Part shown: in pieces, positions 1 through 62,800 of the stretch
Layout of the letters: each line of letters opens with the position of its first letter
Numbering within the stretch: position 1 is the stretch's first letter
Assembly: GCA_043732705.1 (NCBI GenBank)
Contig: JAYTHE010000029.1
Location: 70,445-134,444 of the forward strand
Length of the DNA: 64,000 nucleotides
Origin: Candidatus Omnitrophota bacterium
Lineage (GTDB): Bacteria; Omnitrophota; Omnitrophia; Omnitrophales; Aquincolibacteriaceae
Direction of reading: 5' to 3'
Program-made: the position numbers and the translations under genes
The notes under the pieces: generated by a model
Seen by the model: the letters and a program-made list of their open reading frames with translations, nothing else
The model's database searches: none
What the model was told of the DNA's origin: nothing

Positions 1-438
1 TTCTTTTTTACCTTGGTCTTCCAATGTTTTGAGACCCAGAAATTTTCCGATGCCGTATTTTGAATGCACGACATAATCACCACGCTCCAAATCTTTCGCG
101 CGAAAAACCGGCTCAAAAAGCGCGAACTGCTCTTCCAGCTTATCAAGTTTCTTTTGAAAAAAATCAGAAACGGGAATCAAAAAGACTTCGTCAAAGTGAG
201 TCATATTGCGGCCGTCGGAAAGCGTAAAATCGCGGATATTCATCACCTTATCGTCCGCGATACGAATACGCACCGGTAAACGGTAAGAAACAGGAAAAAT
301 ATCAAAAGCCGCGCCGCGTTGGGCATATTGGCCGGGCGCCGAGACAGCGCTTACGGGTTGATAGTGTAAAACGCCTAGCTTCTGCTCAAGCTCCTCCACC
401 CGAACTGAATCGCCCACTTGTAAACGGTAAACATCCAT
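1..438 (-). CDS. mfd: Mfd-like transcription-repair coupling factor, N-terminal portion (ORF starts at ATG 438-436; 3' end runs off window start)
   Basis: Manual translation of minus strand: MDVYRLQVGD...GQYAQRGAAFDIFP...GDYVVHSKYGIGKFLGL matches Mfd D2/D3 and RNAP-interaction (CarD-like) motifs; in-frame TAG 4 codons upstream of the Met. Confidence 0.5.
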   Translation of the reverse strand, partial: MDVYRLQVGDSVRVEELEQKLGVLHYQPVSAVSAPGQYAQRGAAFDIFPVSYRLPVRIRIADDKVMNIRDFTLSDGRNMTHFDEVFLIPVSDFFQKKLDKLEEQFALFEPVFRAKDLERGDYVVHSKYGIGKFLGLKTLEDQGKKE

Positions 439-505
439 GCGGTTAATCTAGCAAAAGCGGAAAATTATTAAATCGGGGAAATGGATGTGATTATGCGTGA
501 GCGCC

Positions 506-580
506 GGTTGCACCTTAACAGGGCAGAATATAACTATGCGTGAGTACCGGTTGCGCCTTGGCGCAGAGGTAAAATAAACT
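506..580. repeat. palindromic element (PE) family GGTTGNGC-loop-GCN'CAGAG: one degenerate copy (506-533) + one full copy (546-580) inside aspC-like 3' end
   Basis: ccggttgcgc cttg gcgcagaggtaaaataaac. Confidence 0.7.
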
Positions 581-1739
581 GTGCCATACGGCGAACGGCT
601 TCTTCAATATCTTTTTCGCTCGTCGCATAACTGACGCGAATATGTTTAGCACTCCCAAAGGGTTCGCCCGGCACCACCGCCAAATGCGCTTTCTCAAGCA
701 GTAATTCAGAGAGCTGCAATCCGGTCATGCCGGTATCCGCGATATTAATAAAAAGATAAAAAGCTCCTTCGGGACGAAAAGGTTTCAAAGAAGGAATCGC
801 TTTCAACAAATTGATGAAAAGATCCCGGCGCTTTTCATAAACCGCGCACATTTTTGCGGCTTCCGTATCGCCTTGATCAAGCGCCGTAATGCCGCCGGCC
901 TGCGCGAAAGAATTGGGGTTGGATGTTGAATGGCTTTGAAAGCTGGCGACGGCTTTGGCAAGCGGTTTATCGGGAATACCGGCATAACCCAAACGCCAGC
1001 CGGTCATCGCATAGGCCTTGCTATGGCCGTTTACAACGATGGTACGGGCGGCAATCTCCGCATCCAACGAAGCGATCGAAACGGCTTTAATTCCGCCAAA
1101 AGTAAGCTTCTCATAAATTTCATCACTCAAAATCTGGACATGCGGATTTTTTTTCAAAACGGGAATTAAAGCCCGCAATTCTTTTTCGGAATAAACTGCG
1201 CCCGTCGGATTAGACGGCGAATTTAAAATTAAAAGTTTGGTCTGAGGTGTAATACTTTTTTCAAGCATCGCAGGCGTGATTTTAAACCCGGTAGCTTCCG
1301 TTGTTTCAATCAAAACACTTTTAGCGCCGCACAAAATGGCCATTTCCGGGTAGCTGAGCCAAAACGGCGAAGGAATCAGAACTTCATCACCGGGATTAAG
1401 CATGGCATAAAACACATTAAAAATAACATGCTTCGCTCCGCAGCCAACCACAACTTGTTCGGGTTCAAAAGTAAGGCCTTGGTCGCGCTTAAATTTACGA
1501 ATGACCGCCTGTTTAATTTCAGGAGTACCGGTTTCGGGAGTATATTTTGTGGCGCCTTTTTGAAGGGCTTGAATCGCTGAATCTTTGATGAATTGCGGTG
1601 TATCGAAATCCGGCTCACCCGCGCTGAGAGAGATGACATCCAAACCTTGTGCGCGCATCGCTTTCGCTTTGGCAGCAATACCCAGGGTGAGAGAAGGCTT
1701 TACGGCTGTAACACGGTCCGAAAGTCTAATTGAACTCAT
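534..1739 (-). CDS. PLP-dependent class I/II aminotransferase (aspartate aminotransferase family)
   Basis: 401-aa ORF; motifs SLSAGEPDFDTP, NPSNPTG, SKAYAMTGWRLGY typical of AspC-family; last ~12 codons encoded by a palindromic repeat element. Confidence 0.85.
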   Translation of the reverse strand: MSSIRLSDRVTAVKPSLTLGIAAKAKAMRAQGLDVISLSAGEPDFDTPQFIKDSAIQALQKGATKYTPETGTPEIKQAVIRKFKRDQGLTFEPEQVVVGCGAKHVIFNVFYAMLNPGDEVLIPSPFWLSYPEMAILCGAKSVLIETTEATGFKITPAMLEKSITPQTKLLILNSPSNPTGAVYSEKELRALIPVLKKNPHVQILSDEIYEKLTFGGIKAVSIASLDAEIAARTIVVNGHSKAYAMTGWRLGYAGIPDKPLAKAVASFQSHSTSNPNSFAQAGGITALDQGDTEAAKMCAVYEKRRDLFINLLKAIPSLKPFRPEGAFYLFINIADTGMTGLQLSELLLEKAHLAVVPGEPFGSAKHIRVSYATSEKDIEEAVRRMAQFILPLRQGATGTHA

Positions 1740-1764: not shown

Positions 1765-1816
1765 CTGCTCTGGGCTTCTCCAACCTTGCGGTTGGGTGGA
1801 AACCCAGAGCAATAAC
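1765..1816. repeat. PE, composite inverted pair (rplQ-aminotransferase spacer)
   Basis: ctgctctgggcttctccaacc / gcggttgggtggaaacccagagc. Confidence 0.8.
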
Positions 1817-3540: not shown

Positions 3541-3568
3541 TTTTTGCTCTGAGGCTACGCCTCAATCG
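3541..3568. repeat. PE, inverted orientation (rpsD-rpoA spacer)
   Basis: tttttgctctgaggctacgcctcaatcg. Confidence 0.7.
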
Positions 3569-4636: not shown

Positions 4637-4670
4637 ATATTTTGCCTCTGAGCCTGACGGCTCAACCGGC
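4637..4670. repeat. PE, inverted orientation (rpsM-rpsK spacer)
   Basis: atattttgcctctgagcctgacggctcaaccggc. Confidence 0.8.
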
Positions 4671-5539: not shown

Positions 5540-6325
5540 CTATTTGACGGTTGGGCATCGCCCAGAGCCAAAGTTGTAATAGCCGCCTGTTAAATTTATA
5601 AATCCGTTTTCCGTAAACGCTATCGTATCTTCATAATGGCTTGCCCAGGAACGGTCTTTCGTTACCACGGTCCAGCCATCCGCTAAAATCTGTACTTCAT
5701 GCGAACCCTGCGTCACCATCGGCTCAATCGCCAAAACTAACCCCGGCTCAATCTTTAACCCTCTGCCCGCTTTCCCATAATTTGGAACCTGCGGTTCTTC
5801 ATGCAAACTTTTTCCGATTCCGTGCCCGACAAAATCTCGCACAACACCGTAACCGCGTGATTCAATATGCGCTTGAATCGCTGCTGACAAATCACCGATT
5901 TGACAGCCCGGTTTATACGCTGCAAGTCCCGCTTCCATTCCACCTTTGGAAGCATCGATCAACTTCTGGGTTTTCGCATCGGCTCCGCCGACGCACCAGG
6001 ATCTTGCCGCATCCGAATAAAAACTTTTGTATATCACTCCAATATCAAAACTTACCAGGTCGCCTTTTTTCAACTTTTTATTTCCCGGAATTCCATGCAC
6101 CACTTCTTCGTTCACCGAGATGCAGGCTACCTTCGGAAAACCGCGATATCCTTTAAATGCGGATGTGCCGCCATTTGCACGAATTATTTTATCCGCAATC
6201 GCGTCCAAATCATTCGTTGTCGCGTTTTCCACAACCGTCGGCTGCACAGCGGCAAAGATCTTTTGTATGATCATCGCCGCTTCCTGCATAATTTCAATCT
6301 CGCGCTTAGATTTAAGCTCGATCAT
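5540..6325 (-). CDS. map: methionine aminopeptidase type I (C-terminal 10 aa encoded by a repeat element)
   Basis: 261 aa; metal-binding D/D/H/E/E motifs (FVGHGIG, LAIEPM); location between adk and infA. Confidence 0.9.
   Translation of the reverse strand: MIELKSKREIEIMQEAAMIIQKIFAAVQPTVVENATTNDLDAIADKIIRANGGTSAFKGYRGFPKVACISVNEEVVHGIPGNKKLKKGDLVSFDIGVIYKSFYSDAARSWCVGGADAKTQKLIDASKGGMEAGLAAYKPGCQIGDLSAAIQAHIESRGYGVVRDFVGHGIGKSLHEEPQVPNYGKAGRGLKIEPGLVLAIEPMVTQGSHEVQILADGWTVVTKDRSWASHYEDTIAFTENGFINLTGGYYNFGSGRCPTVK
5546..5580. repeat. PE inside map 3' coding end
   Basis: gacggttgggcatcgcccagagccaaagttgtaat encodes FGSGRCPTVK. Confidence 0.8.
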
Positions 6326-11296: not shown

Positions 11297-11917
11297 TTAT
11301 CTTTTTTTGAATGGAAAACCGAGAAGCTCCAAAAGCTTTTTGGCTTCCTGGTTATTCGTTGCCGTTGTCACAAAAGTCACGTCCATACCCTGGACTTTTT
11401 TAACTTTATCAAATTGAACCTCGGAAAAAACGGTTTGTTCCGTGATTCCGATCGAAAAATTTCCGCGGCCGTCAAAGCTTCGGTCCGAATATCCTTGAAA
11501 ATCGCGGATACGCGGCATCGCTAAATTGAACAAACGGTCCATAAATTCATACATGCGCGCTTTGCGGAGAGTTACTTTCAAACCGATCGGAGAGTTTTCG
11601 CGCAGTTTAAACGCGGAAATCGCCTTCTTGGCGCGGCGCACAACCGGCTTTTGTCCGGTGATCAAAGAAAGTTCTTCAGCACATTGCTCAAAAATCTTGA
11701 TATCGGAAGGGCCTTCTTTAATACCCATATTCACAACGATTTTTTGAAGCTTCGGAATCTGCATCTTGTTCTTATAGCCAAATTCTTTAGCAAGCTGCGG
11801 AGAAATTTCCGCATCATACTTCGCCTTCAATCGCGGCGTATAATTTGATTTCTCATTTATTTTTTTTGCCGGTTGAGCGGAGCGCTCAGAGGCAGATTTT
11901 TTATCGTCCGTTGCCAT
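11297..11917 (-). CDS. rplE: 50S ribosomal protein L5 (N-terminal ~25-aa extension containing a repeat element)
   Basis: L5 core KLQKIVVNMGIKEG...; ATG 11917 preceded by AGGAGAGG SD and overlaps rplX stop (TAATATG). Confidence 0.9.
   Translation of the reverse strand: MATDDKKSASERSAQPAKKINEKSNYTPRLKAKYDAEISPQLAKEFGYKNKMQIPKLQKIVVNMGIKEGPSDIKIFEQCAEELSLITGQKPVVRRAKKAISAFKLRENSPIGLKVTLRKARMYEFMDRLFNLAMPRIRDFQGYSDRSFDGRGNFSIGITEQTVFSEVQFDKVKKVQGMDVTFVTTATNNQEAKKLLELLGFPFKKR
11868..11907. repeat. PE inside rplE 5' coding extension (inverted orientation)
   Basis: gccggttgagcggagcgctcagaggcag encodes SASERSAQPA on minus strand. Confidence 0.8.
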
Positions 11918-12853: not shown

Positions 12854-13150
12854 TTACGACGCGCTCCTGCTGGTTATATTTTTACTCTGGGTCTTCGACC
12901 CAACCGCGGCCTTGCTCTGAGACTTCGTCTCAGTCGCACTTTGTTGAGACTTTGTCTCAACTGCTTTTTGCTGATTCGCCACTGTTAGAACTCTTGCAAT
13001 ATCACGGCGCATTTCTTTAATCGTGGAATGTTTTTCCAGCTTGCCCAATTTCGCATCAAAACGAAGCTGCATGAGTTGCTTTTTCAGCTGTGTTTCTTTT
13101 TCCGCTAATTCTTCTTTGCTTAAATTTTGGTAATCAGCTACTTTTGCCAT
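12854..13150 (-). CDS. rpmC: 50S ribosomal protein L29 with ~35-aa C-terminal tail encoded by three palindromic repeat units
   Basis: MAKVADYQNLSKEELAEKETQLKKQLMQLRF L29 core; TAATATG junction with rplP; tail AVETKSQQSATETKSQSK... Confidence 0.85.
   Translation of the reverse strand: MAKVADYQNLSKEELAEKETQLKKQLMQLRFDAKLGKLEKHSTIKEMRRDIARVLTVANQQKAVETKSQQSATETKSQSKAAVGSKTQSKNITSRSAS
12876..12964. repeat. PE x3 forming the rpmC C-terminal tail
   Basis: tactctgggtcttcgacccaaccgcgg ; ctgagacttcgtctcag ; ttgagactttgtctcaa. Confidence 0.8.
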
Positions 13151-13151
13151 A

Positions 13152-13568
13152 TTAGATTCCTTCACGCTTCACAAATTTGGTCCGGAACGGGATTTTATGC
13201 GCGCAGAGGCGAAAGGCAGACTTCGCGAGCAATTCCGGAATTCCTGACATTTCAAAAATAATGCGTCCCGGTTTAATAACACAAACATAAAACTCAGGCG
13301 AACCTTTACCCTTACCCATACGAGTTTCGGGCGGACGCTTGGTATACGGCTTATCCGGAAAAGCACGCAGCCACAATTTACCACTGCGTTTGACGTGACG
13401 TGAAAGAGCCACACGCGCCGCTTCAATTTGAATTGCTGTCAAATAACCGCGGTCGATTGCCTTTAAAGCATAATCTCCGAACGCCAAGCTTGATCCGCGG
13501 GTAGCAACACCGCCCATGGACCCACGCTGCATTTTTCTATATTTGACACGTTTCGGCATTAACGACAT
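13152..13568 (-). CDS. rplP: 50S ribosomal protein L16
   Basis: [13 protein letters not shown]... Confidence 0.95.
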
Positions 13569-17211: not shown

Positions 17212-17940
17212 CTATTTTTTTTCCGCTTCAGTTTTCTCAATCGCCGGTTGAGCAGAAGGCTCAGAGGCAGAATTCGACTGGGCCGAATGAACTAGCCAAG
17301 ACTTTGCTTTCCCTTTTTTCAGAGAATTCTTAATTACAAGATATCCGCCGTTATGCCCCGGAATACTCCCGCGGACAATTAAAACGCCCTGCTCTTCATC
17401 AGCATCGACCACAAAGCAATTTGATTTGGTAATAGTATCTGTACCCATATGTCCGGCCATTTTACGTCCGCGATAAGTGCGGCCCGGGGTCGAGTTTTGT
17501 CCGGTTGATCCGGCTTCGCGGCCAAACTTAGAACCATGAGCGGCTTCGCCGCCCTTAAAACCGTGGCGCTTAATAACACTTTGAAACCCTTTACCTTTGG
17601 AAACTCCGGTCACATCAATATAGTCACCTGCTTCAAATTGCTTCACGGAAAGCTGCGCGCCCAGCGTCAAACCTTCGAGTTTTTCCGAACGGATTTCACG
17701 GATAAAATGCATCGCGTCTTTAACGCCGGATTTCTTAATGTGACCCATGAGGGCCTTGCCCAAATTCTTTTCTTTTGCCTTGCCATAAGCAAGCTGAACA
17801 GCCTGATAACCGTCTTTTTCTTTGGTGCGAATCGCCGTTACATAGCAAGGCGAGCAATCCAAAACCGTGACCGGAATTTGGCGGCCATCTTCATCAAACA
17901 CCTGTGTCATTCCAACTTTTTTTCCGAGCAAACCAATCAT
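17212..17940 (-). CDS. rplC: 50S ribosomal protein L3
   Basis: MIGLLGKKVGMTQVFDEDG. Confidence 0.95.
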   Translation of the reverse strand: MIGLLGKKVGMTQVFDEDGRQIPVTVLDCSPCYVTAIRTKEKDGYQAVQLAYGKAKEKNLGKALMGHIKKSGVKDAMHFIREIRSEKLEGLTLGAQLSVKQFEAGDYIDVTGVSKGKGFQSVIKRHGFKGGEAAHGSKFGREAGSTGQNSTPGRTYRGRKMAGHMGTDTITKSNCFVVDADEEQGVLIVRGSIPGHNGGYLVIKNSLKKGKAKSWLVHSAQSNSASEPSAQPAIEKTEAEKK

Positions 17941-32624: not shown

Positions 32625-32706
32625 TTTACGGTTGCGCCTTAGCGCAGAGCCAAATCTTTTACTGTGCGGCTGGGCATCATCACCCAGAGCCGAAACATAT
32701 CGTACG
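32625..32706. repeat. PE x2 (upstream of secE)
   Basis: tacggttgcgccttagcgcagagccaaatc ; gcggctgggcatcatcacccagagccgaaacatatcgtac. Confidence 0.8.
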
Positions 32707-37002: not shown

Positions 37003-37828
37003 ACATATTGCCGGAGCTGCAGCAAATCATGAAGCAGTTCACGAAGCGCACGAGTTCCCCAACTTCATCCACTTACTTTCCGACCGCTTCCACGATTCCG
37101 CCATTTTGCATTTTATGCATCAGTGGGAAAACCTTTTTTTCTCAGGAACAATTTTAGTTCTCATTTCCTCCATCCTTTTGATTGCTGCTGCGCGTGACAC
37201 ATTGATTCCGGATGTTTTTCGAAATGCGGTCGAAGCGCTTGTCGAAGGCATTGAAAATTTCATTGTCAGCATCTTGGGCGAAGAAGGCCGCAAGCATGTT
37301 CCTTTTTTAGGCACAACTTTTCTTTATATCTTCTTCATGAATTACTGCGGGTTGTTTCCTTTTTTTAAATCTCCGACTTCTTCTTTAAACACTACGATTC
37401 CTTTGGCTTTGATTGCGGTTTGTTATATTCAATATTGGGGGCTTCGCGAACTAGGTTTTAAAAAATATTTACTGCATATCGCCGGCAGCCCGGAAGGCAT
37501 CGCCTCGTGGATCATCGGCGTCATTCTGCTTTTCCCGCTTAATATCATGCTTGAGTTCCTCGCTGTTCCATTAAGTTTATCCGTTCGTCTCTTCGCGAAC
37601 GTCTCGAGTGAAGACTCTTTGCTTTATCAATTTTCGCGCATTGTTTTGCGTTCATATTTATTCGCTTTTCCGCTGCAGCTTTTTGGAAATGCCCTCGCGT
37701 TTCTTTTCAGCGGAATTCAAGCTTTCGTTTTTACTTTGCTGACAACCGTTTATATCAAAGCCATGATGCCCGGTGAACATGGCCCCGAACACTCTGAGTC
37801 TTTGACTCAACCGGTATCGGGACATTAA
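36980..37828 (+). CDS. atpB: F0F1 ATP synthase subunit a
   Basis: conserved LSLSVRLFANV (essential Arg) motif. Confidence 0.85.
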   Translation: MTESIQSEHIAGAAANHEAVHEAHEFPNFIHLLSDRFHDSAILHFMHQWENLFFSGTILVLISSILLIAAARDTLIPDVFRNAVEALVEGIENFIVSILGEEGRKHVPFLGTTFLYIFFMNYCGLFPFFKSPTSSLNTTIPLALIAVCYIQYWGLRELGFKKYLLHIAGSPEGIASWIIGVILLFPLNIMLEFLAVPLSLSVRLFANVSSEDSLLYQFSRIVLRSYLFAFPLQLFGNALAFLFSGIQAFVFTLLTTVYIKAMMPGEHGPEHSESLTQPVSGH

Positions 37829-38610: not shown

Positions 38611-39191
38611 AAGACGCAGGAATTATCGCCAAACGCTACGCGGAAGCCCTTTTCAACCTCTGCCTGAAGGAAAAGAACCTTGGGGTGGTTGAAAAGTCTT
38701 TTGATTCGTTTGTAAATGAAACCACGAAGAACACAACTTTCGTGCACTTCATGGAGAGCCCCGTGATTCCGCATAAAAGCAAAGAAGCTGTGCTTGAAAA
38801 AATTATTCCTCAAGGAATGCCGCCGCTCTTGGTGCTTTTTTTGAAACTGGTCCTGGCTAAAAAAAGGTTTGAAGTTTTGACTTTGATCGAAAAAACTTTT
38901 CAACAGCGCTCGGAACGCTATCGCGGTGTTCATCGGGCGGAATTAACCACGGCGGTTGCCGTGGAGCTCGCGGCAGAAAAAAAACTAACCGCACTGCTTG
39001 AAAAGAAATTTTCTCGAGAGAAAATTTCGGCTTCTGAGCCTTCGGCTCAACCGGAAGTTATTCTTACAAAAAAAGTTGATCCCAAAATATTGGGCGGATT
39101 TATTTTAAAATGGGATGAGCTCGTCGTTGATGCGAGCTATCAAACAAAATTACGCGAAATGAAGCAGCGGCTCTATGCCACCGCGATCTAA
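38607..39191 (+). CDS. atpH: F0F1 ATP synthase subunit delta
   Basis: position between b and alpha; OSCP-like length. Confidence 0.8.
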   Translation: MKDAGIIAKRYAEALFNLCLKEKNLGVVEKSFDSFVNETTKNTTFVHFMESPVIPHKSKEAVLEKIIPQGMPPLLVLFLKLVLAKKRFEVLTLIEKTFQQRSERYRGVHRAELTTAVAVELAAEKKLTALLEKKFSREKISASEPSAQPEVILTKKVDPKILGGFILKWDELVVDASYQTKLREMKQRLYATAI

Positions 39192-44218: not shown

Positions 44219-44523
44219 CAACTATCCCTTCTGAATATTATTTAGTCTTGGCCGGCATTCTTTTTTCCATCGGTCTTTTCGGGATTTTACTGCGCCGTAA
44301 CATCCTGATTATTCTTTTGTGTCTGGAACTGATGCTGAATGCCGCAAATCTTGTTTTAGTCACCGCCTCTTCGGTTCATGGCCATACTGACGGCCAAATT
44401 ATGGCCTTTTTTGTGATGGTGATTGCCGCGGTGGAAGTCACTATCGGCCTCGCGATTGCTGTTTTACTTTTTAAAGAAAAAAATACCGTCGACACCGGAG
44501 AGATTACATCTCTCAAAGGTTAA
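44215..44523 (+). CDS. nuoK: NADH-quinone oxidoreductase subunit K
   Basis: 102 aa, LCLELMLNAANL motif. Confidence 0.9.
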   Translation: MTTIPSEYYLVLAGILFSIGLFGILLRRNILIILLCLELMLNAANLVLVTASSVHGHTDGQIMAFFVMVIAAVEVTIGLAIAVLLFKEKNTVDTGEITSLKG

Positions 44524-44615
44524 AACTTAAAAGTCAAAACTCAAAACCTAAAACTTGCTCGAACAACTTTGGGTTCCAAGCTATGGTTTTAAGATTTTAG
44601 ATTTAAATTTTGAGC
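44522..44615. repeat. ~90-bp palindromic MITE-like element (nuoK-nuoL spacer)
   Basis: aaaacttaaaagtcaaaactcaaaacc ... gctatggttttaagattttagatttaaatttt; arms mutually reverse-complementary. Confidence 0.6.
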
Positions 44616-44620
44616 TTATT

Positions 44621-46594
44621 ATGCTGAGTTTATGTTGGACAATTTTGGGATTGCCGCTTGCCGCTTCCGCGGTGATTTCGCTTTTATTAATTCCCGCCGA
44701 AAAGGCCGCTAAAGATAAACATTTTTTCCGCACAGCATCTGCCTTTTTGTCCGTTCTTTCGATGGCAGCCGCATTCGGCTTAAGTCTTTTGCTTCTGCAG
44801 AACTTCCGCAGCATTGAAAACCATAGCGAGGTTTTTGAAACTTCCCTGAATTGGATGACTTTACCGCAATTCCGGATTGAAATCGGTTTGCTTCTCAATA
44901 ATCTTACATTGCTGATGCTTTTAATTGTGACCGGCGTATCTTTACTCGTAGCACTATTCTCCTCCCGGTACATGAAAGGCGAAGAGGGCTATTCCCGTTA
45001 TTTTGCCGCGCTTTCTTTTTTTGCTTTTTCAATGCTCGGAATCGTGCTTTCCAATAATTTGATCCAGATTTTTATTTTTTGGGAATTGGTCGGTGTGGCT
45101 TCTTATCTTTTAATCGGTTTCTGGTTTGAAAAGCCTTCGGCCAGCATCGCATCAAAAAAAGCTTTTCTCGTAACGCGTATCGGTGACGTTGGCATGATGC
45201 TTGGCATTCTGCTTTTGCTCGGGCTATTACTCAAATCCGGCACTGGTACATTTAACTTTCTTGAGTTGGAAACAAGACTGCATCAGTCTGCTTTACCGGC
45301 CGGGCTTTTCACCTTGGCCTGCATTGGTATTTTTTTCGGAGCCGTTGGTAAATCGGCGCAGGTGCCTTTGCATGTTTGGCTGCCGGATGCGATGGAAGGT
45401 CCGACACCGGCCAGTGCATTAATCCACGCCGCGACCATGGTTGCTGCGGGCGTGTTCATGCTTGCCCGTCTTTTCTTTTTATTTGAAATGAGTCCAGTAA
45501 CACTGCAAATCATAGCTTGGACCGGTATTATCACCGCTTTTCTCGCGGCATCCATTGCTGTTGTTCAAAATGACATTAAAAAGGTACTCGCCTACTCCAC
45601 GCTTTCGCAGCTGGGATATATGGTCATGGCCGTCGGCCTTAAAAACCCCGAAGCCGGAATGTTTCATTTAACAACCCACGCTTTTTTCAAAGCCTTGCTC
45701 TTTCTTGGCGCCGGCAGTTTGATCCATGCTCTGCACACGCAGGATATATGGGAGATGTCGGCACTGGTCCGTTCCGACCAAAGTCATTCTGCCTCTGCGT
45801 CTTCGACGCAACCGGCACATCGCAGCTGGCTAAAAACTATTCCTATCACAGGTCTTACTTTTCTAATCGGAACTGCCGCGCTTGCAGGGCTTCCTTTTAC
45901 GAGCGGTTTTTTCAGCAAAGAAGAAATTCTCGGTGCGGCTTCGACCGGTCCCCGCATTGTTTTTGGAATGGCACTTGCGGTTGTTTTTCTGACAGCTTTC
46001 TACATGGGCCGCGCTGTTACAATTATCTTCTGGAGCTCCGCTCCAACCAGACACCCTCAAAAACATGTGGAAATACATGAAGATAATTGGATGATTACTG
46101 TTCCGCTGCTTATCCTCGCTGTTTTTTCTTTAATTGCCGGCTATTTACCTTTCAAATCATTTTTAGAGAATCAAACAGCGCATGCTGAAATTCATCCGCA
46201 GTGGCTGGCTGCGGCTTCAGTCACCCTTGCTTGCTGCGGACTTTTACTCAGTTTTGTTCTTTACCGCCGGTCTTCTTCGCCTCTGAGCCAAGGGCTCAAC
46301 CGGAAAAACCTCCTAACTCAACTCGTCACATTTCTTAAAGAAAAATATTATTTCGATAAATTCTATGACTGGTTCATCATTCATGTTCAGGAAAATATCG
46401 CGCGTGCCGCGGACAACTTCGAACGTGTCGTGCTTGAACGCGGCGGCAATCAAGGTTTGGCGGGTTTAACGCAATTTCTGGGAAATACAGCGCGTAAATT
46501 ACAAAACGGCTGGATCCAAAGCTATGCTCTTGTTTTCGCAATCGGCTTTATTGCATTGGTTGCTTATCTTGTATTTTGCGGAGCAAAGTTATGA
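44621..46594 (+). CDS. nuoL: NADH-quinone oxidoreductase subunit L
   Basis: WLPDAMEGPTPASALIHAATMVAAG motif; start moved to ATG 44621 after the MITE-like spacer element. Confidence 0.9.
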   Translation: MLSLCWTILGLPLAASAVISLLLIPAEKAAKDKHFFRTASAFLSVLSMAAAFGLSLLLLQNFRSIENHSEVFETSLNWMTLPQFRIEIGLLLNNLTLLMLLIVTGVSLLVALFSSRYMKGEEGYSRYFAALSFFAFSMLGIVLSNNLIQIFIFWELVGVASYLLIGFWFEKPSASIASKKAFLVTRIGDVGMMLGILLLLGLLLKSGTGTFNFLELETRLHQSALPAGLFTLACIGIFFGAVGKSAQVPLHVWLPDAMEGPTPASALIHAATMVAAGVFMLARLFFLFEMSPVTLQIIAWTGIITAFLAASIAVVQNDIKKVLAYSTLSQLGYMVMAVGLKNPEAGMFHLTTHAFFKALLFLGAGSLIHALHTQDIWEMSALVRSDQSHSASASSTQPAHRSWLKTIPITGLTFLIGTAALAGLPFTSGFFSKEEILGAASTGPRIVFGMALAVVFLTAFYMGRAVTIIFWSSAPTRHPQKHVEIHEDNWMITVPLLILAVFSLIAGYLPFKSFLENQTAHAEIHPQWLAAASVTLACCGLLLSFVLYRRSSSPLSQGLNRKNLLTQLVTFLKEKYYFDKFYDWFIIHVQENIARAADNFERVVLERGGNQGLAGLTQFLGNTARKLQNGWIQSYALVFAIGFIALVAYLVFCGAKL

Positions 46595-51558: not shown

Positions 51559-51571
51559 AAAAACCTCATCT

Positions 51572-51670
51572 CAAAGGTTAAAAGTAAAATCTGAAAATAT
51601 AACTTAAAGGCCAAAATTATCCGGACAGTTTTTATTTTTGGGCTATGGTTTTAATCTTTAAGATTTAACC
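51572..51670. repeat. left ~100-bp inverted repeat flanking EVE gene (MITE-like family)
   Basis: ...ataacttaaaggccaaaattatccggacagtttttatttttgggctatggttttaatctttaagatttaacc. Confidence 0.7.
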
Positions 51671-52123: not shown

Positions 52124-52235
52124 ACTTAAAGGTTAAAGCTCAAAAGTCAAAACCATAGCCCGAAACTAAAAACTGTCCGGATAGTTTTGGCCTTTAAGTT
52201 ATAGTTTTAAGCTTTTACCTTTAACTTTTAACCTT
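52124..52235. repeat. right ~105-bp inverted repeat flanking EVE gene
   Basis: reverse complement ~85% identical to 51572-51670, 40-bp core with one mismatch. Confidence 0.7.
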
Positions 52236-53832: not shown

Positions 53833-56800
53833 TTAAGCAGCAGAAAGCGTTAATTGGACGCCAAAGATTTGGGCTGCCAGGGCATCCAAGCCCACACTGT
53901 GAAACAGTTTGGCAATACCTTGGTCCGTGAGAATTCGATAGTCACCCATTTGCCGTAGTAAAGTAACCGTCTCAGAAGAATCATCCTGGCTCATCAAAGC
54001 TGAACGACGCGCATATTTTCCATGCGTTTGTGCGGCTAAGTCTTGCGGACTGACAAAGACCAGGCCTTGTCCCTTGAACCCTTTCGCCTCGATTAAATTT
54101 TTGAATTCCAGCCGTTGCTGTTCGTTTTCAGCATAAATCGCAAACAGTTTATCGCCCAATACTCGTTTATCTTGTAAGAATCCCTTTTGATGCACAAGTG
54201 CAGGACTTAAAACAACCAAATCCGCCGGTGATTTCATAATTTTATCCATAACAGTCGGCAACACCGGAGCACCAAAATATTGCCCATAAAACCTACTAAA
54301 CTCGGAACGCGTCATAGTATTAACAAATGACACTGAAAAAATATTCCTAGCCATTCTGGTGACTTCAATCTGAGATTGCGGCGAAACTATCAGTTCTTTT
54401 GTCCGCATTTCCGAGCGTAGCACTTTATCGGCAGCAACTGCGTTGTCTGGCAAATTCCACCTATAAATTAGTTCACGAATAAGAATACGATTGACCATTG
54501 ACTGCCTTGAAAATTCACGCTGCTGGCCTGGGTTTTTGACTTGTCTCATCAAAGTGAGCGACAACTCTCTGCTGAATGGATTAACAACGTGGTGCACAAG
54601 ACCCATTGCACCATCTTCACTCATTCTATTAAGAACCTCTTCGAGAGATATTCCTCGAAGATCTTGCATTGTTTTCAGCAAAGTCTGAACCTCTTGATCA
54701 TTCAAAAGCTCCGTATTTTTCATGCCATGAAAACGATCCGCCAATGTTTTTTCATCGTCGGAGCCATAAATCCATTGATCTCGAGCCACCAACGAATCTA
54801 AATATTTAGAAAAATTAAACTCCGTTTTTCTTTTTTCTTTTGCATCCCAAGCAAAAAATGATTTTGTTGTAAATGTTGTGTCTCGAGAAGCCGCTTTTAA
54901 GCGTGCCAAAACTAAAGAGAAACTTTGATCTTCGCTGTTTCTCAAAACCTCTTGCGATTCGGAGCGTGGAACGGTCACAGCTGGCGCAGTTTTTATTTCA
55001 AGTGGTTCAATAAAGCCGGTTTGCAAGCTATCACCACTTGGTATCACATGAACTAAAAATCCTTTGCGGGCTCCATCGCTAGCTAGATTTTCTTTCAACT
55101 GCATTTTTAAATTGCCTTTCACACCACTTTTTAGTTTGATTTCTACTGCCTCCTGGTCAACGCTATTGATTTTGATACGAACCAATTTCAAAATCTTTCC
55201 GGTATGGCTCAAATCTTTCCTTTGATCACGCTCAAGCTCTGCTGTAAAAGAAACTTCGAAGCGCGCAGCTTGGGTCCGCACTCCCGGGATAATTCCAAAT
55301 TGATAAATGCCGCTAACCTTAACACGTTTTCCAGGACGAAATAGTCCGCGGCTCGCTACTTGATTATGTAACTCTTCATCACGCGAATTATCGGGGCGCA
55401 AAGTCATAACAACACCAAATCTGTCCGGCGGTTCGCCTCTCGGTCCTTCTCCGTCCCGCGCTTCTGAACGGACACGCTTTGCAATAGCTCTTTTTATTTT
55501 TCCGAATAAAACTTTCCCATCTGGCGATGCAAGATAATGCAAGGTATGCGAATATTCTCCGGGATGTTTCCAAATATCAGTCTCAAAAAAATTAACGGAC
55601 ACGAGGTGAAACTCTTCGATTTCGTTAAGATTGTAATTTTCTTTTATTTTTTTCAACTCGGCATCAGAAACAAAATATAAATACGCCGTTGTAAACTCGC
55701 GATTGACCCCGTCTTCAAGATCATATTCACGATATATACCATTTTGTTTAGTAAGCGGAATGAACCGGTCTGAGTCAATACGAATACCCACTTCCTCTTC
55801 CGCTTCGCGGCCTGCGGCCGCAATCGGCAATTCGCCGAAATCAACATGGCCGTTCACCGAAACCTGCCATTTCCCCTTGGACGAAGCTTTATTCTGACTG
55901 CGTTTTTGAAACAACAATCTTCCTTTTGAGTCTACAAAATAAATATGTGCCGACATGTGATAAAAACCCTTTTTATGCGCCTCGTCTTTCTTTGCTTTGC
56001 GCCCGGAAAGAATATTGCCATGCTTGTCAGTTAAAGCCACCCCTTCAACGGCTTCGCTTGACTCCACCCCCATTTTTCCGCCCTTTAAAATTAAAACATC
56101 CTGCCGCATTTCGGAGCGCGGTGCTGCAAGCCCTTGGCTCGTGAAACCTTCCTGTCTTACGCTCTTTTCTGGTCTCACCTCAGACGGAGGAAGAATGAGA
56201 TCCGCGGGTTCTGCTTGCCGCAATAAATCAAATTGCTGCAGCGCATCCATCAACCCTTGAAATAAACTTTCTTCCTTTTTTTCTTCGGCGCTTAACGCTT
56301 CCATTTGCTGCCGAAAAGCACGGATTTTTTCTTCGACCTGGCGCTGTGCTTCTAAATCGGCTTTGTAGTCTTCATAATCGGCGCGGCCATGCAGATTTTC
56401 GATCATTCGGTTTTGATAATAATCCCGCTGCCATTGCAACTCAGACAGAGAGCCTTCTTTTGGGGCCGCTTGCCTTGCTTGAGTAGATTTTTCTGATTCA
56501 GTCATGTGTTTACGTACCGCTGCCTTTAATGCTTCTTGCCTTTGGTTTGTGAAATTAATATGAAACGGCCCACGAAGAGCTAGGTGACGGACCAAATCTA
56601 AATATTCAACTGTTTCATCCGACAAAGACCGCAGCCAATCTGCGATTCGTTTAAGTCTGGGCAAAGTGTCTTGCAGGAGAGGTTCAAACGAGTCAACCGG
56701 AAAAAATCCACGATTCATATAAGGTGTGGCAAAAAGCGTTGGCTGTCCGACCTTATTTAAAGCAAAGAATACGCCCCGCCCAAACTCGTCTTCTTTCCAC

Positions 56801-59800
56801 AGAGGTACATGGCTGCGAAGCCATTGCGCCGTGTTACGAATCGAAAAATAATTTTTTTTCAACCAACTATTAAGTAATTCAAACTCATGCTGATAAATGT
56901 CAGCCGCTAAAAATTCAAACCATACCGCTCGTCCTCCTTTAAATTGAAACGCATGGTTGTTTGAGCGATGCGCAGAGAAAACAACTTCCCATAAAGGCAT
57001 CAAACAAGCTTGCAGCAGCTGCCCGTCTGCCAATAATCCTTTTGCGGCAATTTGGAACGCAGTCATCGCGGGATTCGCCGTAAGAGCAGCGAATGCCCCT
57101 ATTAAATTTTGCATAAAAATTCGCCGCGTTTGGGAACGATCTAAATAATCTGCCGTGTGCAAAAACAAATCCTCCGCTAGCATCGGAATGCTTTCCACGA
57201 AACGCTGCGGCGACACAATTCGCCGCGCAGGTTCGTTTGCATTCTCGGCCTTTATTTTTTCAAAAACGGGCTGCCAATACGCAAACGCAAAGGGCTGTTT
57301 TGAAAGAAACTCTGAAAATTCTTCCGCAAGAGCGTCCTTCACTTCAAGCTTGGGCATTTTGAAACGCAGCCATTTCACTAAAAACTTGTTTTCTTCCCTT
57401 TGAATTTTTTCATGAATAAACCTTTCCGCGAGCTTAAGCAATGCCTGTTTATTCCCGACATCATCTCCCCCAACAATCAGCTCATTACGCATTTCGGAGC
57501 GTGCCATTTCCCGGTAAAGCGCAAAATGCTTTTCGGCATTCGCTTGCTGCGAAAAACTTTGAACTGCAAAAGCGCGCCCCGCTTTCCCCATAGCTCTGCG
57601 TTTTTCCGGATGATCCGCCAAATCCAAAATTGCTTCGGCCATCGCTTCTCTATCGCCTTGCTTCACAAAAACTCCCGCATCCGGGCTCAACGCTTGATCA
57701 ACGCCTTCGGCCTCATAGCTCACAACCGGAACTTCCATCGCTCCCGCCTCGATCGCCATCAATCCCAAAGATTCATAGCGCGTCGGAAACACGACTAAAT
57801 CGCTTGCGCGATAACCTTCGCGCACTACCGTTGGCGATCCCGCCGGCAGTATTTGAAAACAATCTTCTAAGTTTTCTCTTCTGATCCCTACAGCAACCGC
57901 GAGATTAATCTCACGGTTTTCATCTTGAGGCCCCATCAATACAAACTGGAATTTAAAATCAGGCCGCTTCTCCCTCAAAATTCTGGCGACTTCAATCAAT
58001 TCTGGCTGGTTTTTTTGTTTGCTGAACCGTGCAGGATAGAAAATCATGAATCGGTCTTTTTTATCGCCCAACATCTTTTCTCTGGCTTTCGCGCGATCTA
58101 CTTTTGCCGGATCTTCAAAATCAGTATCAATGCTGGCTTTGATTAAACGGGTCCTTGAGTCCCGCAATCGCGGAAGAGCAACGGTCGTATACCCGACCAA
58201 AACAGGCACAAGCCATGGCGCGGCCAAATTAAAAATCAAACGGATAACCCATTTAAGCGGCCAAAACCAACGCGCTTTGCCGGCATATAATCGATAAGGC
58301 ATATGATTGGTCGTCACAACCGGGATGCGCTTAATCCCAAAAAGCGCAAAATCAAAAGGCGAGTTCATTTGATGTGAATGAATCACATCGACAGGCTCAG
58401 ATCGCGCAATCTCAGAAACAACCGCGCGGATTTTTTTCATCCATCGAAAATCTCCCAATGGAGTATTGGGATAAGATTCAAAATCAGAAATCGGATGAAA
58501 AATCAATGTCCCTTGACCGTGTTTGAGTTCACCCCCTACTGTGTTGGCTTTTTCGGCGCGGTAAACAATATGAATGCGCACGGGATAACGCCGCGTCAGC
58601 TCTTCGTTAAGGCGGTGCACATAAGTCATCATGCCACCTTTGCGTAAAATTTCCCAATCCATGACCTGAACAATTGTCAGTTCGCGAACGGACGAACCTG
58701 CTCTCCGCATTTCGGAGCGGGCGTCCCATTTTTTTCGAAATTCAATCCATGGCTGAAACTGATTGAATTCAAAATGATCGGGAGCGGCGTCCACCCCGCT
58801 TGCTAAGCTCTGAACGGCAGCAATATCACGCCGGTTGGAATGTCCCGAATCCGCGTCCATTGTCCCTTCGATTAAATCAATAATCGCTTTAAAGCTTAAA
58901 TTTGAATTATCCAAATCAATCCAAAACTCGGTTTTGTAATTTGTCATTTCATCGCTCTGATTACCAACTTGAATCCCACGGCGACCATAACGATCGATTA
59001 GTATTCTTTGTTGTTCGGTGGGCAGTCCTGATGAACGGTAATAACTTTCAACTTCTACTTTCGGCTTAATTACATAACTAAACTCATATGCTGAGGGACC
59101 AAAACCGGTCACAATTTCATCGGTATTCAATAGTAGGTTTAACTCCCTAAAAAAATCTTTAACTGCTCCTTCGGTGATCCGTGATTCGGAACGACGATCA
59201 GAAGCTTTTTGATATTTCCAGCGAATTGCATGATCACGCGACACATTGATTAATTTACCTTCCGGCCGGCCTTGTGTATTAAGCAATTTCACCGGAATCA
59301 TTTCCGGCCCGCCGGCTGTGTCTTCTGAAACTTCCAGAACGATGAGTGCATCCACAGTGCCAATAATGATGCGGTCACCCATTTTAAAATCAGTATCAGC
59401 CTCTATATTATAAACGGGGCTATCAGACAAAAATCCATACCGTGATCGTTTAGTAAGAAAACTTATCTTTTCAATTTGGGCCGATGAGCTGTAATCCGCA
59501 TTGCTTTTTTGAGCGCGCGTATCACGATGCAAAAAAAGCAATCGATGCTCAGCGACTGACTTACGGCCTTGGCGCTGATAGGGATTTTCAAGATACCACT
59601 TCGCTAATTTTCTCTGCGGTTCAAGGCTCAGATTTTGAGCCGCCCAAGCAAGCGCGTTATCACGCGCCTTGCGGTCCGCGGGAGAAAACATCTGACCCAA
59701 ATAAATTGCCTCTAAAAGAATTTCAATATACGCAACTGACCAATGATTGTTACGTTTCGCATTTTTCCAAACCTCATCTTTCAGCGGCTTCAATTCATCA

Positions 59801-62800
59801 AAAAGGAATTGAATCGCCTTTTTCCCGCCTGCAAAAGACTGCATCAATGTCCAAGCCCACTTGTCTTCATAATAATCTTCAAGACTTACTACTTTAGACG
59901 GAATAGAAAATTCTAAAATCGCATCCGCGAACGAAAGCGCCTGTTGCGAGATTTGAAACGCAGGACTCATTGCTATTCCGGAGGTAAGATTTGAAGTAAT
60001 CGCTGACAACAAAGCCGTGCGGTCTTTTTTTAAAAATATTTTTTCAAATTTTCTGATGTTTGCTGCCTGTTCAGGAAAAGTTTTTTTAACTCGTTCTATA
60101 TAAGCCCAGTCAACATCACGCATTTCGGAACGACTCACCACACCAGATCTCGGATCTAACGAAACAGATCCGGGATCTGGGGGGGCCAACCGCATTTCGG
60201 AGCGGTCGTTTTGTTTTTTGGAAAGTGATTTGATTTCGTTCCATCGCGGCGGTCGGTTAATAAGGTTCGCAGCAATTGCGGCGAGTCCGTACCCTATAAA
60301 ATCTTTGGGGTCATAAGTCGTCCAAATAAATGCGCTTGGTAGCTGCACATATTTAGTCATTAACTCTTCGAGAGCAAACACAAGCGGAACTCCAACATTC
60401 GAAAGCAATAAGGCTGTCCGCAAATCGGCAAGCCATCCTTTATAAACGAAAATAATTGCGGTCACGCCATACCCAAACAAACTGCACGAAAGAGGGAACA
60501 ATAAATCCGGCAGCCAATCGAGCCATGTCCAATAATTTTCTTTCCCGATCGTTTGGGATCGAAGAACAAGAAGCATCTGATCCCACATTAAAAACGCTCC
60601 GCCGAAGCCCAACATCTTGATTGCATGGCTCAACTGGGTCGAAAAAAGCGCGCGACTCACCGAACTAGATCCCGGATCTAACGGAACAGATCCGGGATCT
60701 GGGGGGGCCAACCGCATTTCGGAACGGGTCCTTTGTTCTTTAAAAAGAGCTTTGATTTCGTTCCATCGCGGTGGCCGGTTAATAAGGTTCGCGGCAATTG
60801 CGGCGAGTCCGTACCCTATAAAATCTTTGGGGTCATAAGCTGTTCCAAGACCCCATTCCGGAACAGGCACCCACTTCGTCACGAGTTCTTCGATCGCAAA
60901 GGCAACTGGAACTCCAATGTTCGTAAGCAATAAGATAGCCCGTAAATCAGCGACCCATCCTTTAAATAAGGCAAAAATGGCTCCCCCGCTATATCCAATT
61001 AAGCTACAACTAAGAGGCACAAATAAATCTGGCAACCAATCAAGCCATGTCCAATAGTTTTCTCTCCCTATCGTTTGGCGCCGTAGCAAGCAAAGCGCTT
61101 CATCGAACACAAAAATGAGCCCACCCCACGTCATCATCCGAATGGCATGTTTAAGTTGCGCAATCGAAAGAGAGCGAATATCTTTGGCTTCTCCTTTGCT
61201 CGGTTTTTTACGCGATTCGGAACGAACGAAGCCGGGTGATGTGATTGAATCTAACCCTCTTATTTCTGATCGGAACTGATAAGCCGTAATGAGCTGCTGC
61301 ATCTGTTCGCCGGGACTTAGTTGTCCGGCCAGTATATTTAAAAATTGTCTTTCGCTTGCATGAAGTTTGTTCAACTCCGCATAAGCCTTTTGCGCCCATT
61401 CCTCGACTGTCCCCGGACTCTCCGCTAAATGAATCTCTCTTAGGGCAGCCTCCGCTCTTATAACCGCATCAATTTGTTTCAATGCGTACGCATGCGAAAA
61501 TTCGGACTCAGAGTGTCCAATCGCGGCCCCTTCGTCTTGTAGCAAATGGAGAATCGCGCGGACCACTGGTAACCTTGCCCATCCGTCCAGGATCTCTTGG
61601 ATGCCGGAAGCGTACACATACCATCGGATGTCACTTTCTGACCAATCCGCACTGCCGGTCCAATCTTTAAACCACTGCCTTAGAAGGTCGTAGCCGTCGG
61701 GGTTGATTTTAAAACCCAGTCCATATTCTGACTGGGTCTCCGGAAAATCAGTTTCGGCTTCGGCAGGTAATTTACTGCGATAGAGCGCGACAGCATCCAA
61801 TATTTTTTTCCGCAATTTTAAATCACCAAGCGCCTCCTCGGCTTTTCGTTTCTGGAGATCTTTTTTAACTTCAGCCGCATACAGTTTTCTATCTTGTTCG
61901 ACCTGCCTGACGTTTACGCAAATACTCACAACAATTCCGGTTTCAGCATGAAGGTAATAGATGCGCCCACCATCTTTTGAAAGCGCGATTTTTTTCCAAA
62001 TATGTCCGTTCGTTTTAAATATTTTTGCGCGCTCCAGACTTTTCACAACCCATAAATTGCCAAAAGATTGGGGCATGTTTTTCGATTGGTTTTGTATTGA
62101 TCCGGAAATAAATTCCCCTTCCTTTATAAACTCACCGGTATCATCCGCTTTGATTTTTAATTCCTGTAATTTTCCTGAAAAAACAGGCGTCTGGACCGTG
62201 GGCAAATAACCAATATAAGTGATTTGCATCATCCCAATACCGGCCGGCCACAAACCATATTTTTGCCCCGCGGCCGCTTGATGCTGAGTTAACGCCGCTA
62301 AAAGCTGCGGGCTAACAAGAGCGGGCGAGGCCGAATTTTCCAATTTCCAATCACGCATTTGCGGTAAAAAGTGATACAGCCGATCCGAGTTTTGGCCTTG
62401 CATGTAAAGATGCACAAGCAAAGTGCGATAAACCAACAAGTCTTGTGCGGATAATTGGTTTAAATCATGCGGATGCCAGCCTGTCGGGTACATGGCATAC
62501 AAAGCAAAGATTTTGGGATCGGTCCGAGTCCAGGTTAAATCATTTGATTGAACGGCAAATCGAAGACGTTTATAGCCTGAAAGATCGGGCCGGCCCGCAT
62601 AAGACTGCATTTCATTTAAAATGGCCAAAACTTGCTTTCTTTTGGGTTCATCCAACTTTTCAAAAAGGTCAATTCCAAACAAGCCTATTTTTAATCTCTT
62701 CAGAATTTCTACGGAATCAAAATGAGTTTGATTATTAAATATGGTTTGCAACTCATGGGCGCGCTCTTCCGGATAAGCCGTGACATACTGCCGCACTTCA

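Follow-up and report, generated by a model that had tools for sequence, protein, structure and literature searches.

How does the coding sequence of an aminotransferase gene come to end in a palindromic repeat, and is it the encoded peptide or the nucleic acid that has been kept? We examined this for an aspC-like gene of Candidatus Omnitrophota in the window, i.e. the whole 64,000-nt stretch of DNA that was analysed. The closest database relatives of the gene product are metagenome proteins with 83–95% identity, and the named relatives are recorded as aspartate aminotransferase or pyridoxal phosphate-dependent aminotransferase of Candidatus Omnitrophota. In the window, as in each relative whose DNA was compared, rplQ and an mfd-like gene flank aspC, and the gene after aspC contains CarD_TRCF_RID, UvrB_inter, DEAD and Helicase_C domains in every relative.

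In gene sense, aspC ends with CAG TTT ATT TTA CCT CTG CGC CAA GGC GCA ACC GGT ACT CAC GCA TAG, which translates to QFILPLRQGATGTHA and includes ...PLRQGATGTHA. The string quoted in the original prediction, ccggttgcgccttggcgcagagg, is located at 547–569 on the + strand. The core of this repeat unit, CTCTG...CAACC, runs from 568 to 549 (GGTTG...CAGAG when 549–568 is read on the + strand). As sense RNA the copy folds at −11.7 kcal/mol (z = −2.8) into a hairpin with an internal loop and an outer helix, and the end of the hairpin is 12 nt before the stop codon. Among solved aspartate aminotransferase structures, PDB 1j32 aligns to residues 5–389 only and ends at ...RRMAQFI, indicating that the aminotransferase fold ends at I389 (codon 573–575). 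In the alignment of AspC orthologues, those with about 70% identity stop 2–10 residues past the ...RRMAQFI helix.

The original prediction held that the C-terminus of the aminotransferase is written by a palindromic element. This agrees with a tail that lies beyond the fold and holds a consensus copy, and about F388–G398 can be regarded as written by the repeat. The claim has to be narrowed at its very end, where the last three codons and the stop appear not to have been supplied by the repeat and resemble the tails of repeat-less relatives. The tail F388–G398 is thus read as an in-frame repeat insert ahead of a terminus of three codons and stop that is probably ancestral, with a homology to the repeat-less tails that rests on about 9 nt. 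The coordinates are collected in the Table.

Table. Repeat copies and associated features of the window (columns: feature, position, strand, remarks)
Downstream gene, 5' part, mfd/TRCF-like	1..438	-	assigned by synteny; start 95 nt past the aspC stop
Degenerate second unit	491..533	-	TTATATT-CTGCCCTGTTAAGGTGCAACC-GGCGCTCACGCATAA; core 506–526; non-coding now
Last three codons and stop of aspC (ACT CAC GCA TAG)	534..545	-	outside the repeat consensus; like the tails of repeat-less relatives
aspC-like PLP-dependent aminotransferase ORF	534..1739	-	401 aa, uninterrupted; class-I aminotransferase, PF00155
Full repeat unit no. 1	546..578	-	gene sense TTTATTTTA-CCTCTG-CGCC-AA-GGCG-CAACC-GGT; encodes F388–G398
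Inverted repeat pair, rplQ-aspC spacer	1768..1809	.	sense-form 1790–1809, antisense-form 1768–1785; conserved in L091
Repeat in map	5549..5567	-	in the last 9 codons, …FGSGRCPTVK*; frame other than in aspC
Repeat in rplE N-terminal extension	11871..11891	-	MATDDKKSASERSAQPAKK...
Repeat in rpmC C-terminal extension	12860..12905	-	12885–12905 antisense form, plus A-rich flank
Repeat in rplC C-terminal tail	17246..17266	-	…SASEPSAQP…
Repeat in atpB tail	37792..37812	+	…HSESLTQP…
Repeat inside atpH	39032..39052	+	1 mismatch; aa 142–149 (SASEPSAQP)
Repeat inside nuoL, first site	45793..45813	+	13-aa insertion (HSASASSTQPAHR)
Repeat inside nuoL, third site	46281..46301	+	…SSPLSQGLNR…; segment common to only two relatives

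The copy in aspC is a member of a large family. The exact 23-mer has 3 matches in the window when up to 3 mismatches are allowed (the others at 32628 and 43418), while the number in shuffles is 0.00. The pattern GGTTG-N8-16-CAGAG matches 35 times in the 64 kb, compared with 0.55 expected and a highest shuffle value of 3. When a hairpin is required and at most one flank mismatch is allowed, 42 sites are found, compared with 0–6 in 20 shuffles. The consensus of the copies is gc(C)GGTTG-NGC... ...GCN'-CAGAG-(g/c)cAAAATATTA. Read in gene sense, a unit takes up about 36 nt (TATTTTG-S-CTCTG-NGC(n)-loop-(n)GCN'-CAACC-G-S') around a core of 18–26 nt; its fold combines a short hairpin, an asymmetric internal loop that is conserved, and an outer helix of 2–3 bp.

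In the 37 copies used to assess the fold, pairing is kept in 87.8% of cells (shuffles: 71.6%), with a covariation score of 0.370 (0.096 when shuffled; 0 of 500 shuffles reach 0.370). The signal of covariation is lost when the stem partners are slid. The first stem pair is found as all four Watson-Crick types (CG 16, AU 9, GC 9, UA 3), and the pair spanning the conserved internal loop covaries as well (GC 16, CG 11, AU 3), indicating that the outer helix exists. In the strand-of-folding test, 20 G-U wobbles on the mRNA strand were counted versus 10 on the other strand, a difference that is not significant.

Searched with Rfam at the gathering threshold, the whole window gave two tRNAs only and no match on a repeat, and no repeat in region 400–2600 was matched at E<=1. 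We rejected an intrinsic (Rho-independent) terminator, for the T-rich stretch precedes the hairpin in gene sense and CAACCGC follows it without a U tract. The terminator scan reported 30 sites compared with 29.7 expected, none on a repeat copy, and a further point against terminators is that copies stand between genes of single operons. Likeness to attC sites (RYYYAAC / GTTRRRY) was dropped as well, because the conserved flanks are not mutually complementary and the unit is far too short.

In summary, the family consists of REP-like miniature palindromic repeats that are dense in this Candidatus Omnitrophota genome, on a census of the 64 kb window and fragments of relatives. In contigs of distant AspC orthologues (44–51% identity), which served as negative control, the motif is found at most 1–2 times per 13 kb, i.e. 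at chance level. In an Omnitrophota genome further away, whose AspC is 71% identical, the gene junctions are tight and 21 kb contain 0 copies. The strict-pattern scan of a metagenome collection returned 44 stretches only, mostly from the samples that gave the relatives.

In order to place the aspC tail among relatives, we compared the DNA of the eight closest ones (L081, L083, L085, L087–L091), and others as proteins. Half of the eight (L081, L088, L089 and L090) lack both the repeat and a PL..TG segment, and the repeat-less ends read QWIKQPAARA*, QWIKSPVRA*, KWIPVSNTAAQR and KWIPSAGVSSAR. Close relatives without the repeat and without the PLRQGATG segment are 90–94% identical to the window AspC, so the copy is absent in related strains, and a search among the relatives for repeat-less orthologues with this tail found none. 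The ends of the repeat-bearing L087, L083 and L091, together with the proteins P0265, P0259, P0263 and P0005, follow Q[FHY]I[LS]PL[RS]xx[AS]TG[TA][HR]A*. In L085 (5250–5357; AspC P0008), three tandem 36-nt units are all translated in one frame, giving a protein of 441 aa that ends with …PLRQGATGYSTSAPGGTGYSASGPGSTSVKV*; units two and three are already degenerating.

The terminal codons are GTC CGC GCA TAA in L089 and GCG CGA GCG TGA in L081, both without a repeat, and GCC CGC GCT TAA in L087. These xRA* codons are alike in repeat-less and repeat-bearing genes, indicating that the old stop lies downstream of the insert. Moreover, the tryptophan of repeat-less relatives and outgroups is replaced by Y, H or F in repeat-bearing genes, since the 5' flank of the repeat (TAT ATT TTG CCT CTG) encodes those residues. 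The simplest reading would be that the repeat entered in frame ahead of the ancestral stop, by insertion or by replacement, and added six codons net. The AspC tree does not unite the repeat-bearing genes in one clade, at modest bootstraps (57–73%). This patchy distribution appears compatible with a single insertion, several insertions at a hot spot, loss or recombination, among which the tree does not discriminate.

As judged from the protein, the AspC tail of P0260 ends with ...GSVLRPTAG, which resembles the repeat in a second frame and, if it is the repeat, would imply an independent event. The tails of P0260 and P0262 (ELIGSVLRPTAG; QHIQPNLALGR) perhaps represent the repeat in a different frame, or what is left of a copy after partial deletion.

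Behind the aspC stop lies a second unit, which repeats the last four codons of the gene together with the stop. In a pairwise alignment at a spacing of 43 nt, 24 of its 3' 27 nt agree with the coding unit, and the matching stretch includes the 10 nt CTCACGCATA, which are outside the family consensus and hold the copy of the stop. The proposed local duplication with a degenerate second copy is therefore upheld, and the second unit is evidently the product of a 43-nt tandem duplication that took in the repeat, the last four codons and the stop. TRF did not score this 43-nt duplication, which is too diverged. The arrangement of two units is also present in the 95%-identical L091 and missing in L087 and L083. 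The intergenic sequence past the second unit (ATC.CATTTCCC.GAT) aligns with the sequence past the L085 stop, indicating that the arrays are related.

The codons of the tail tell which level has been constrained. Across five lineages (window, L091, L087, L083 and L085), all third-codon positions of the core are invariant (8 of 8), while upstream of the tail 83 of 100 such positions vary in the same lineages, which points to selection or homogenisation acting on the nucleic acid rather than the peptide. For example, the first stem pair changes from C-G to A-T in L083, by which R and A become S and S and the hairpin is kept. The peptides written by the repeat also differ from gene to gene: PLSQGLNR and ASASSTQP in nuoL, (S)ASEPSAQP in rplC and atpH, SASERSAQP in rplE, HSESLTQP in atpB and GSGRCPT in map. 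They depend on the frame, with PLxxxxTG/NR in aspC and nuoL and (S)ASxxSxQP in rplC, rplE, atpH, atpB and nuoL. Since the same repeat gives other peptides in other genes, the aspC tail peptide is likely a by-product.

The in-frame overlap that had been claimed for map, rplE and rpmC was found at all three genes, in rpmC with a partner copy and in rplE within an N-terminal extension. In rpmC (12854–13165), L29 is 103 aa and its Pfam domain ends at residue 65, leaving an extension of about 38 aa, in which a further degenerate copy in opposite orientation stands just upstream (~12906–12930). This extension reads through the inverted repeat pair and stops right at the rpsQ start. The apparent start of rplE, ATG at 11917, is 1 nt past the rplX stop (TAATATG), which gives a 27-aa N-terminal extension containing the repeat; L5 of the more distant relative L092 is 179 aa long. 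The gene nuoL (44555–46594), encoding a complex-I membrane subunit, contains two clear copies and one doubtful one. Its 13-aa insertion is missing from 76%-identical orthologues in the alignment. Other nuoL relatives have the repeat-like peptides ASGSPSQP or ASGTSSQP in this loop, only a few residues off, and insertion thus seems to have occurred there several times independently.

Generally, most copies are intergenic (about 30 of about 42), typically 4–19 nt past a stop codon, and about 10 are within ORFs, those of essential genes, a share above that usual for REPs. The usual layout in gene sense is (stop)-N4-19-TATTTTG-S-CTCTG-stem-loop-stem-CAACC-G-S'. There are 35 sense-form copies (CUCUG...CAACC in the mRNA) and 10 antisense-form copies in the window, a ratio of about 3:1, and 23 and 5, respectively, in relatives. 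Where the gene strand switches, near 35 kb and near 49.5 kb, the orientation of the copies switches with it. GC skew is close to −0.13 where genes are on the minus strand, rises to about −0.02 over the plus-gene region and falls back to about −0.12 behind it, a profile that fits a single replichore plus a gene-strand effect, indicating that the orientation bias tracks transcription. A replication origin as the cause of the orientation switch near 35 kb was ruled out by the same profile. Given its position inside operons, the repeat is very likely transcribed.

Antisense-form copies are mostly the second partner of an inverted pair, or stand just 5' of the ribosome-binding site of the next gene. 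Inverted pairs resembling REPINs are found at 1768/1790, 9425/9480, 29947/29968 and 43364/43420. The first of them occupies the rplQ-aspC spacer, and the same spacer in L083, L088, L089, L087 and L090 contains long perfect hairpins bordered by T and A runs, similar in appearance to classical bidirectional terminators. In L087 and L090 it reads CTCTGAGCTTCG...CGAAGCTCAGAG and then TTTTT, as if made from the end motifs of the repeat. At junctions of the ribosomal-protein operon, orthologous sites in relatives either lack a copy or have copies whose stems differ and whose orientation is sometimes reversed. For the rpsM-rpsK spacer (window 4646–4667, compared with L081, L083 and L085) and the rpsD-rpoA spacer (window 3547–3567, compared with L081 and L083), the repeat is in opposite orientation and the flanks are inverted too.

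Two other features of the window were recorded. A second, AT-rich repeated motif (CTCAAAGGTTAAAACTTAAAAGTCAAAAC and variants) is located at the gene junctions 44512–44554, 51570–51598 and 52125–52153 and is unrelated to the palindromic family. A very long ORF of at least 3378 aa (53833–63969, − strand) has 0 repeat copies; it contains an internal direct repeat of 196 nt, whose copies at 60131–60326 and 60653–60848 are 89% identical, and related motifs of 30 nt lie at 58705, 60190 and 60712.

Taken together, we consider it likely that a REP-like hairpin repeat was inserted in frame at aspC, with the peptide tolerated as a by-product and the hairpin conserved. One unit would have replaced about 15 nt of a dispensable C-terminal tail, with a net gain of six codons, so that F388–G398 would be translated repeat, and the three codons and the stop after it would be those of the old gene end. 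The decaying copy downstream would stem from a tandem duplication of 43 nt at a later time, and between close relatives copies would have been gained, lost, tandemly duplicated and inverted. In the transcript, the hairpin might act as an intercistronic or 3'-end hairpin, e.g. by protecting the upstream mRNA segment. It may have spread by transposition through a RAYT-like ssDNA enzyme, or by slippage or gene conversion.

An orientation linked to transcription, and a core that stays frozen at an orthologous site, lean towards the hairpin having a role in the transcript or being coupled to it. In another account the repeat is a purely DNA-level selfish REP, non-autonomous and moved on ssDNA by a RAYT-type Y1 transposase, with no transcript role and an orientation bias that comes from the insertion mechanism, e.g. 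an exposed non-template strand. Such an origin is possible, though we hold it to be doubtful. The architecture is indeed that of a REP, with a hairpin and conserved unpaired bases, the GTTG is one base off the GTAG tag (whose second and third positions vary), and REPIN-like pairs are present in the window. Intragenic insertions at places where a 3'-end hairpin would be useless, and the same flanks in an unrelated alphaproteobacterial contig, agree with it too. However, orientation follows transcription and not the inferred replication direction, and the core is invariant at an orthologous site while nearby synonymous sites are near saturation, which argues for constraint at the level of the locus. 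The enzyme was sought in three ways: the Y1_Tnp Pfam search gave no match among the unknown ORFs of the window; tblastn with approximate IS200 TnpA and YafM queries gave none in 0.51 Mb of window and related DNA; and ORFs flanked by inverted repeat copies include no transposase candidate. Covering a fraction of the genome, these searches are a weak test for a RAYT. A stronger version of the transcript role, which we regard as unlikely, would make the repeat a lineage-specific, transcription-oriented RNA signal at cistron ends, 4–19 nt past stop codons. Its hairpin, in which the UC/ACC internal loop is fixed, would be recognised by a factor of its own, e.g. a protein for processing or protection, and would be under selection strong enough to overwrite the termini and loops of essential proteins.

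The tail could also have arisen by read-through, if an intergenic copy stood behind the original aspC stop, which was then lost by mutation or small deletion so that the ORF ran to the next stop. That most copies are 4–19 nt after stops speaks for this course, as do the ORF of L085, which crosses three units and whose stop aligns with the stop of the non-coding unit in the window, and the end of P0260, which at the protein level is like the repeat in another frame. But the xRA* codons of repeat-less genes resemble those after the repeat and place the old stop downstream of the insert, and the W codon is overwritten by the 5' flank of the repeat to give [YHF]-I-[LS]-P-L; we therefore find read-through improbable. 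Selection on the protein, by which PLRQGATG(T/A)(H/R)A would be a functional C-terminal peptide and its likeness to the repeat secondary, could explain why the tail is common to at least 7 relatives. It is nevertheless highly improbable, because the tail is outside the solved fold and missing from 90–94%-identical orthologues, the R->S and A->S stem changes are compensatory at the nucleotide level, the frozen third positions are the opposite of what would be expected, and the same DNA yields other peptides elsewhere. A chance resemblance, or an artefact of assembly or annotation, can be practically dismissed in view of the excess of the pattern over expectation and of identical or near-identical tails in independent NCBI, JGI, ENA and Logan assemblies.

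If in-frame insertion of a conserved hairpin is the right reading, a 36-nt hairpin repeat of a little-studied phylum has entered the operons that are most conserved, those for ribosomal proteins, ATP synthase and complex I, and has rewritten protein ends and loops in frame. Automatic annotation will then give spurious 'novel' termini and length variants, and marker-protein alignments and phylogenies from such MAGs include repeat-encoded segments. The frozen third-codon positions would be a clean case of selection on nucleic-acid structure overriding the coding sequence. As orientation follows transcription, the family offers a simple system to ask what REP-type hairpins do in the transcript.

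The repeat, in the form GGTTG-stem-GAA-stem-CAGAG-CAAA, was also observed in L135 (contig Ga0189290_100046, 4605–12820) and L130 (687–741), on a GC-rich contig (56–59%). On contig Ga0189290_100046 the density is 9 copies per 12.9 kb, four of them in one tandem run, and its proteins cluster with Hyphomicrobiales/Devosiaceae-like Pseudomonadota. The copies after its sdhA have an orientation to the gene opposite to the preference in Omnitrophota. If the repeat were a cistron-end signal, the near-identical alphaproteobacterial flanks would point to a shared or transferred trans-acting partner.

The literature was searched for a described repeat family of Omnitrophota, and none was found. Compared with known systems, the repeat corresponds to REPs sensu lato (PMC12306157), being a short palindromic stem-loop in many copies with a consensus, mostly extragenic and near gene ends. 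The distance of REPs from the preceding ORF is typically <20 bp; some REPs lie within genes, a tenth of these at ORF ends (Di Nocera et al. 2013, PMC3733652). The same study found particularly large numbers in Opitutus terrae, which belongs to the same PVC superphylum, and in Rickettsia conorii. The Omnitrophota repeat shares with them an imperfect palindrome of 20–40 nt with a common consensus and high copy number, the position mostly <20 bp behind ORFs, the occurrence as singletons, tandems and inverted dimers, and the translation of some copies. However, it lacks the terminal tag of the GTAG/CGTC superfamilies and does not belong to them, and its flank GTTG, one base from GTAG, is absent from the variants listed (PMC3733652). 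Unlike REPs, it has conserved GGTTG and CAGAG on both sides of the stem, forming an internal loop closed by an outer helix; it is also very dense at ribosomal-protein operon junctions, and shows a 3:1 orientation bias with respect to transcription, and no associated RAYT gene was seen in the DNA searched.

MITEs, with terminal inverted repeats, target-site duplications and usually 100–500 bp, were rejected, as the unit is about 36 nt and no flanking direct repeats are found at the aspC and nuoL copies. The MIRUs that Supply and colleagues described in 1997 are reportedly intercistronic operon repeats oriented with transcription, whose frames overlap the ends of flanking genes; they are said to be direct repeats of 40–100 bp. 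By this description they are not hairpins with covarying stems, unlike the Omnitrophota repeat.

REPs close to stop codons in E. coli stall terminating ribosomes (cited in PMC12306157). The aspC copy is similar in having a stable hairpin within about 15 nt of the stop, but this hairpin is upstream of the stop and would have to be unwound and translated. In-frame fusions of Rickettsia palindromic elements (RPE) are documented (PMC10969869), and these elements resemble the present case in the in-frame insertion of a palindrome into unrelated essential genes with a tolerated added peptide. RPE are about 100–150 bp with a conserved peptide of tens of residues, whereas the Omnitrophota unit is 21–39 nt (7–13 residues), is read in at least 2 frames and is mostly intergenic, so it falls outside the RPE. 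The repeat-written tail of aspC is a new example of a type of event that is already known for other bacterial repeats.
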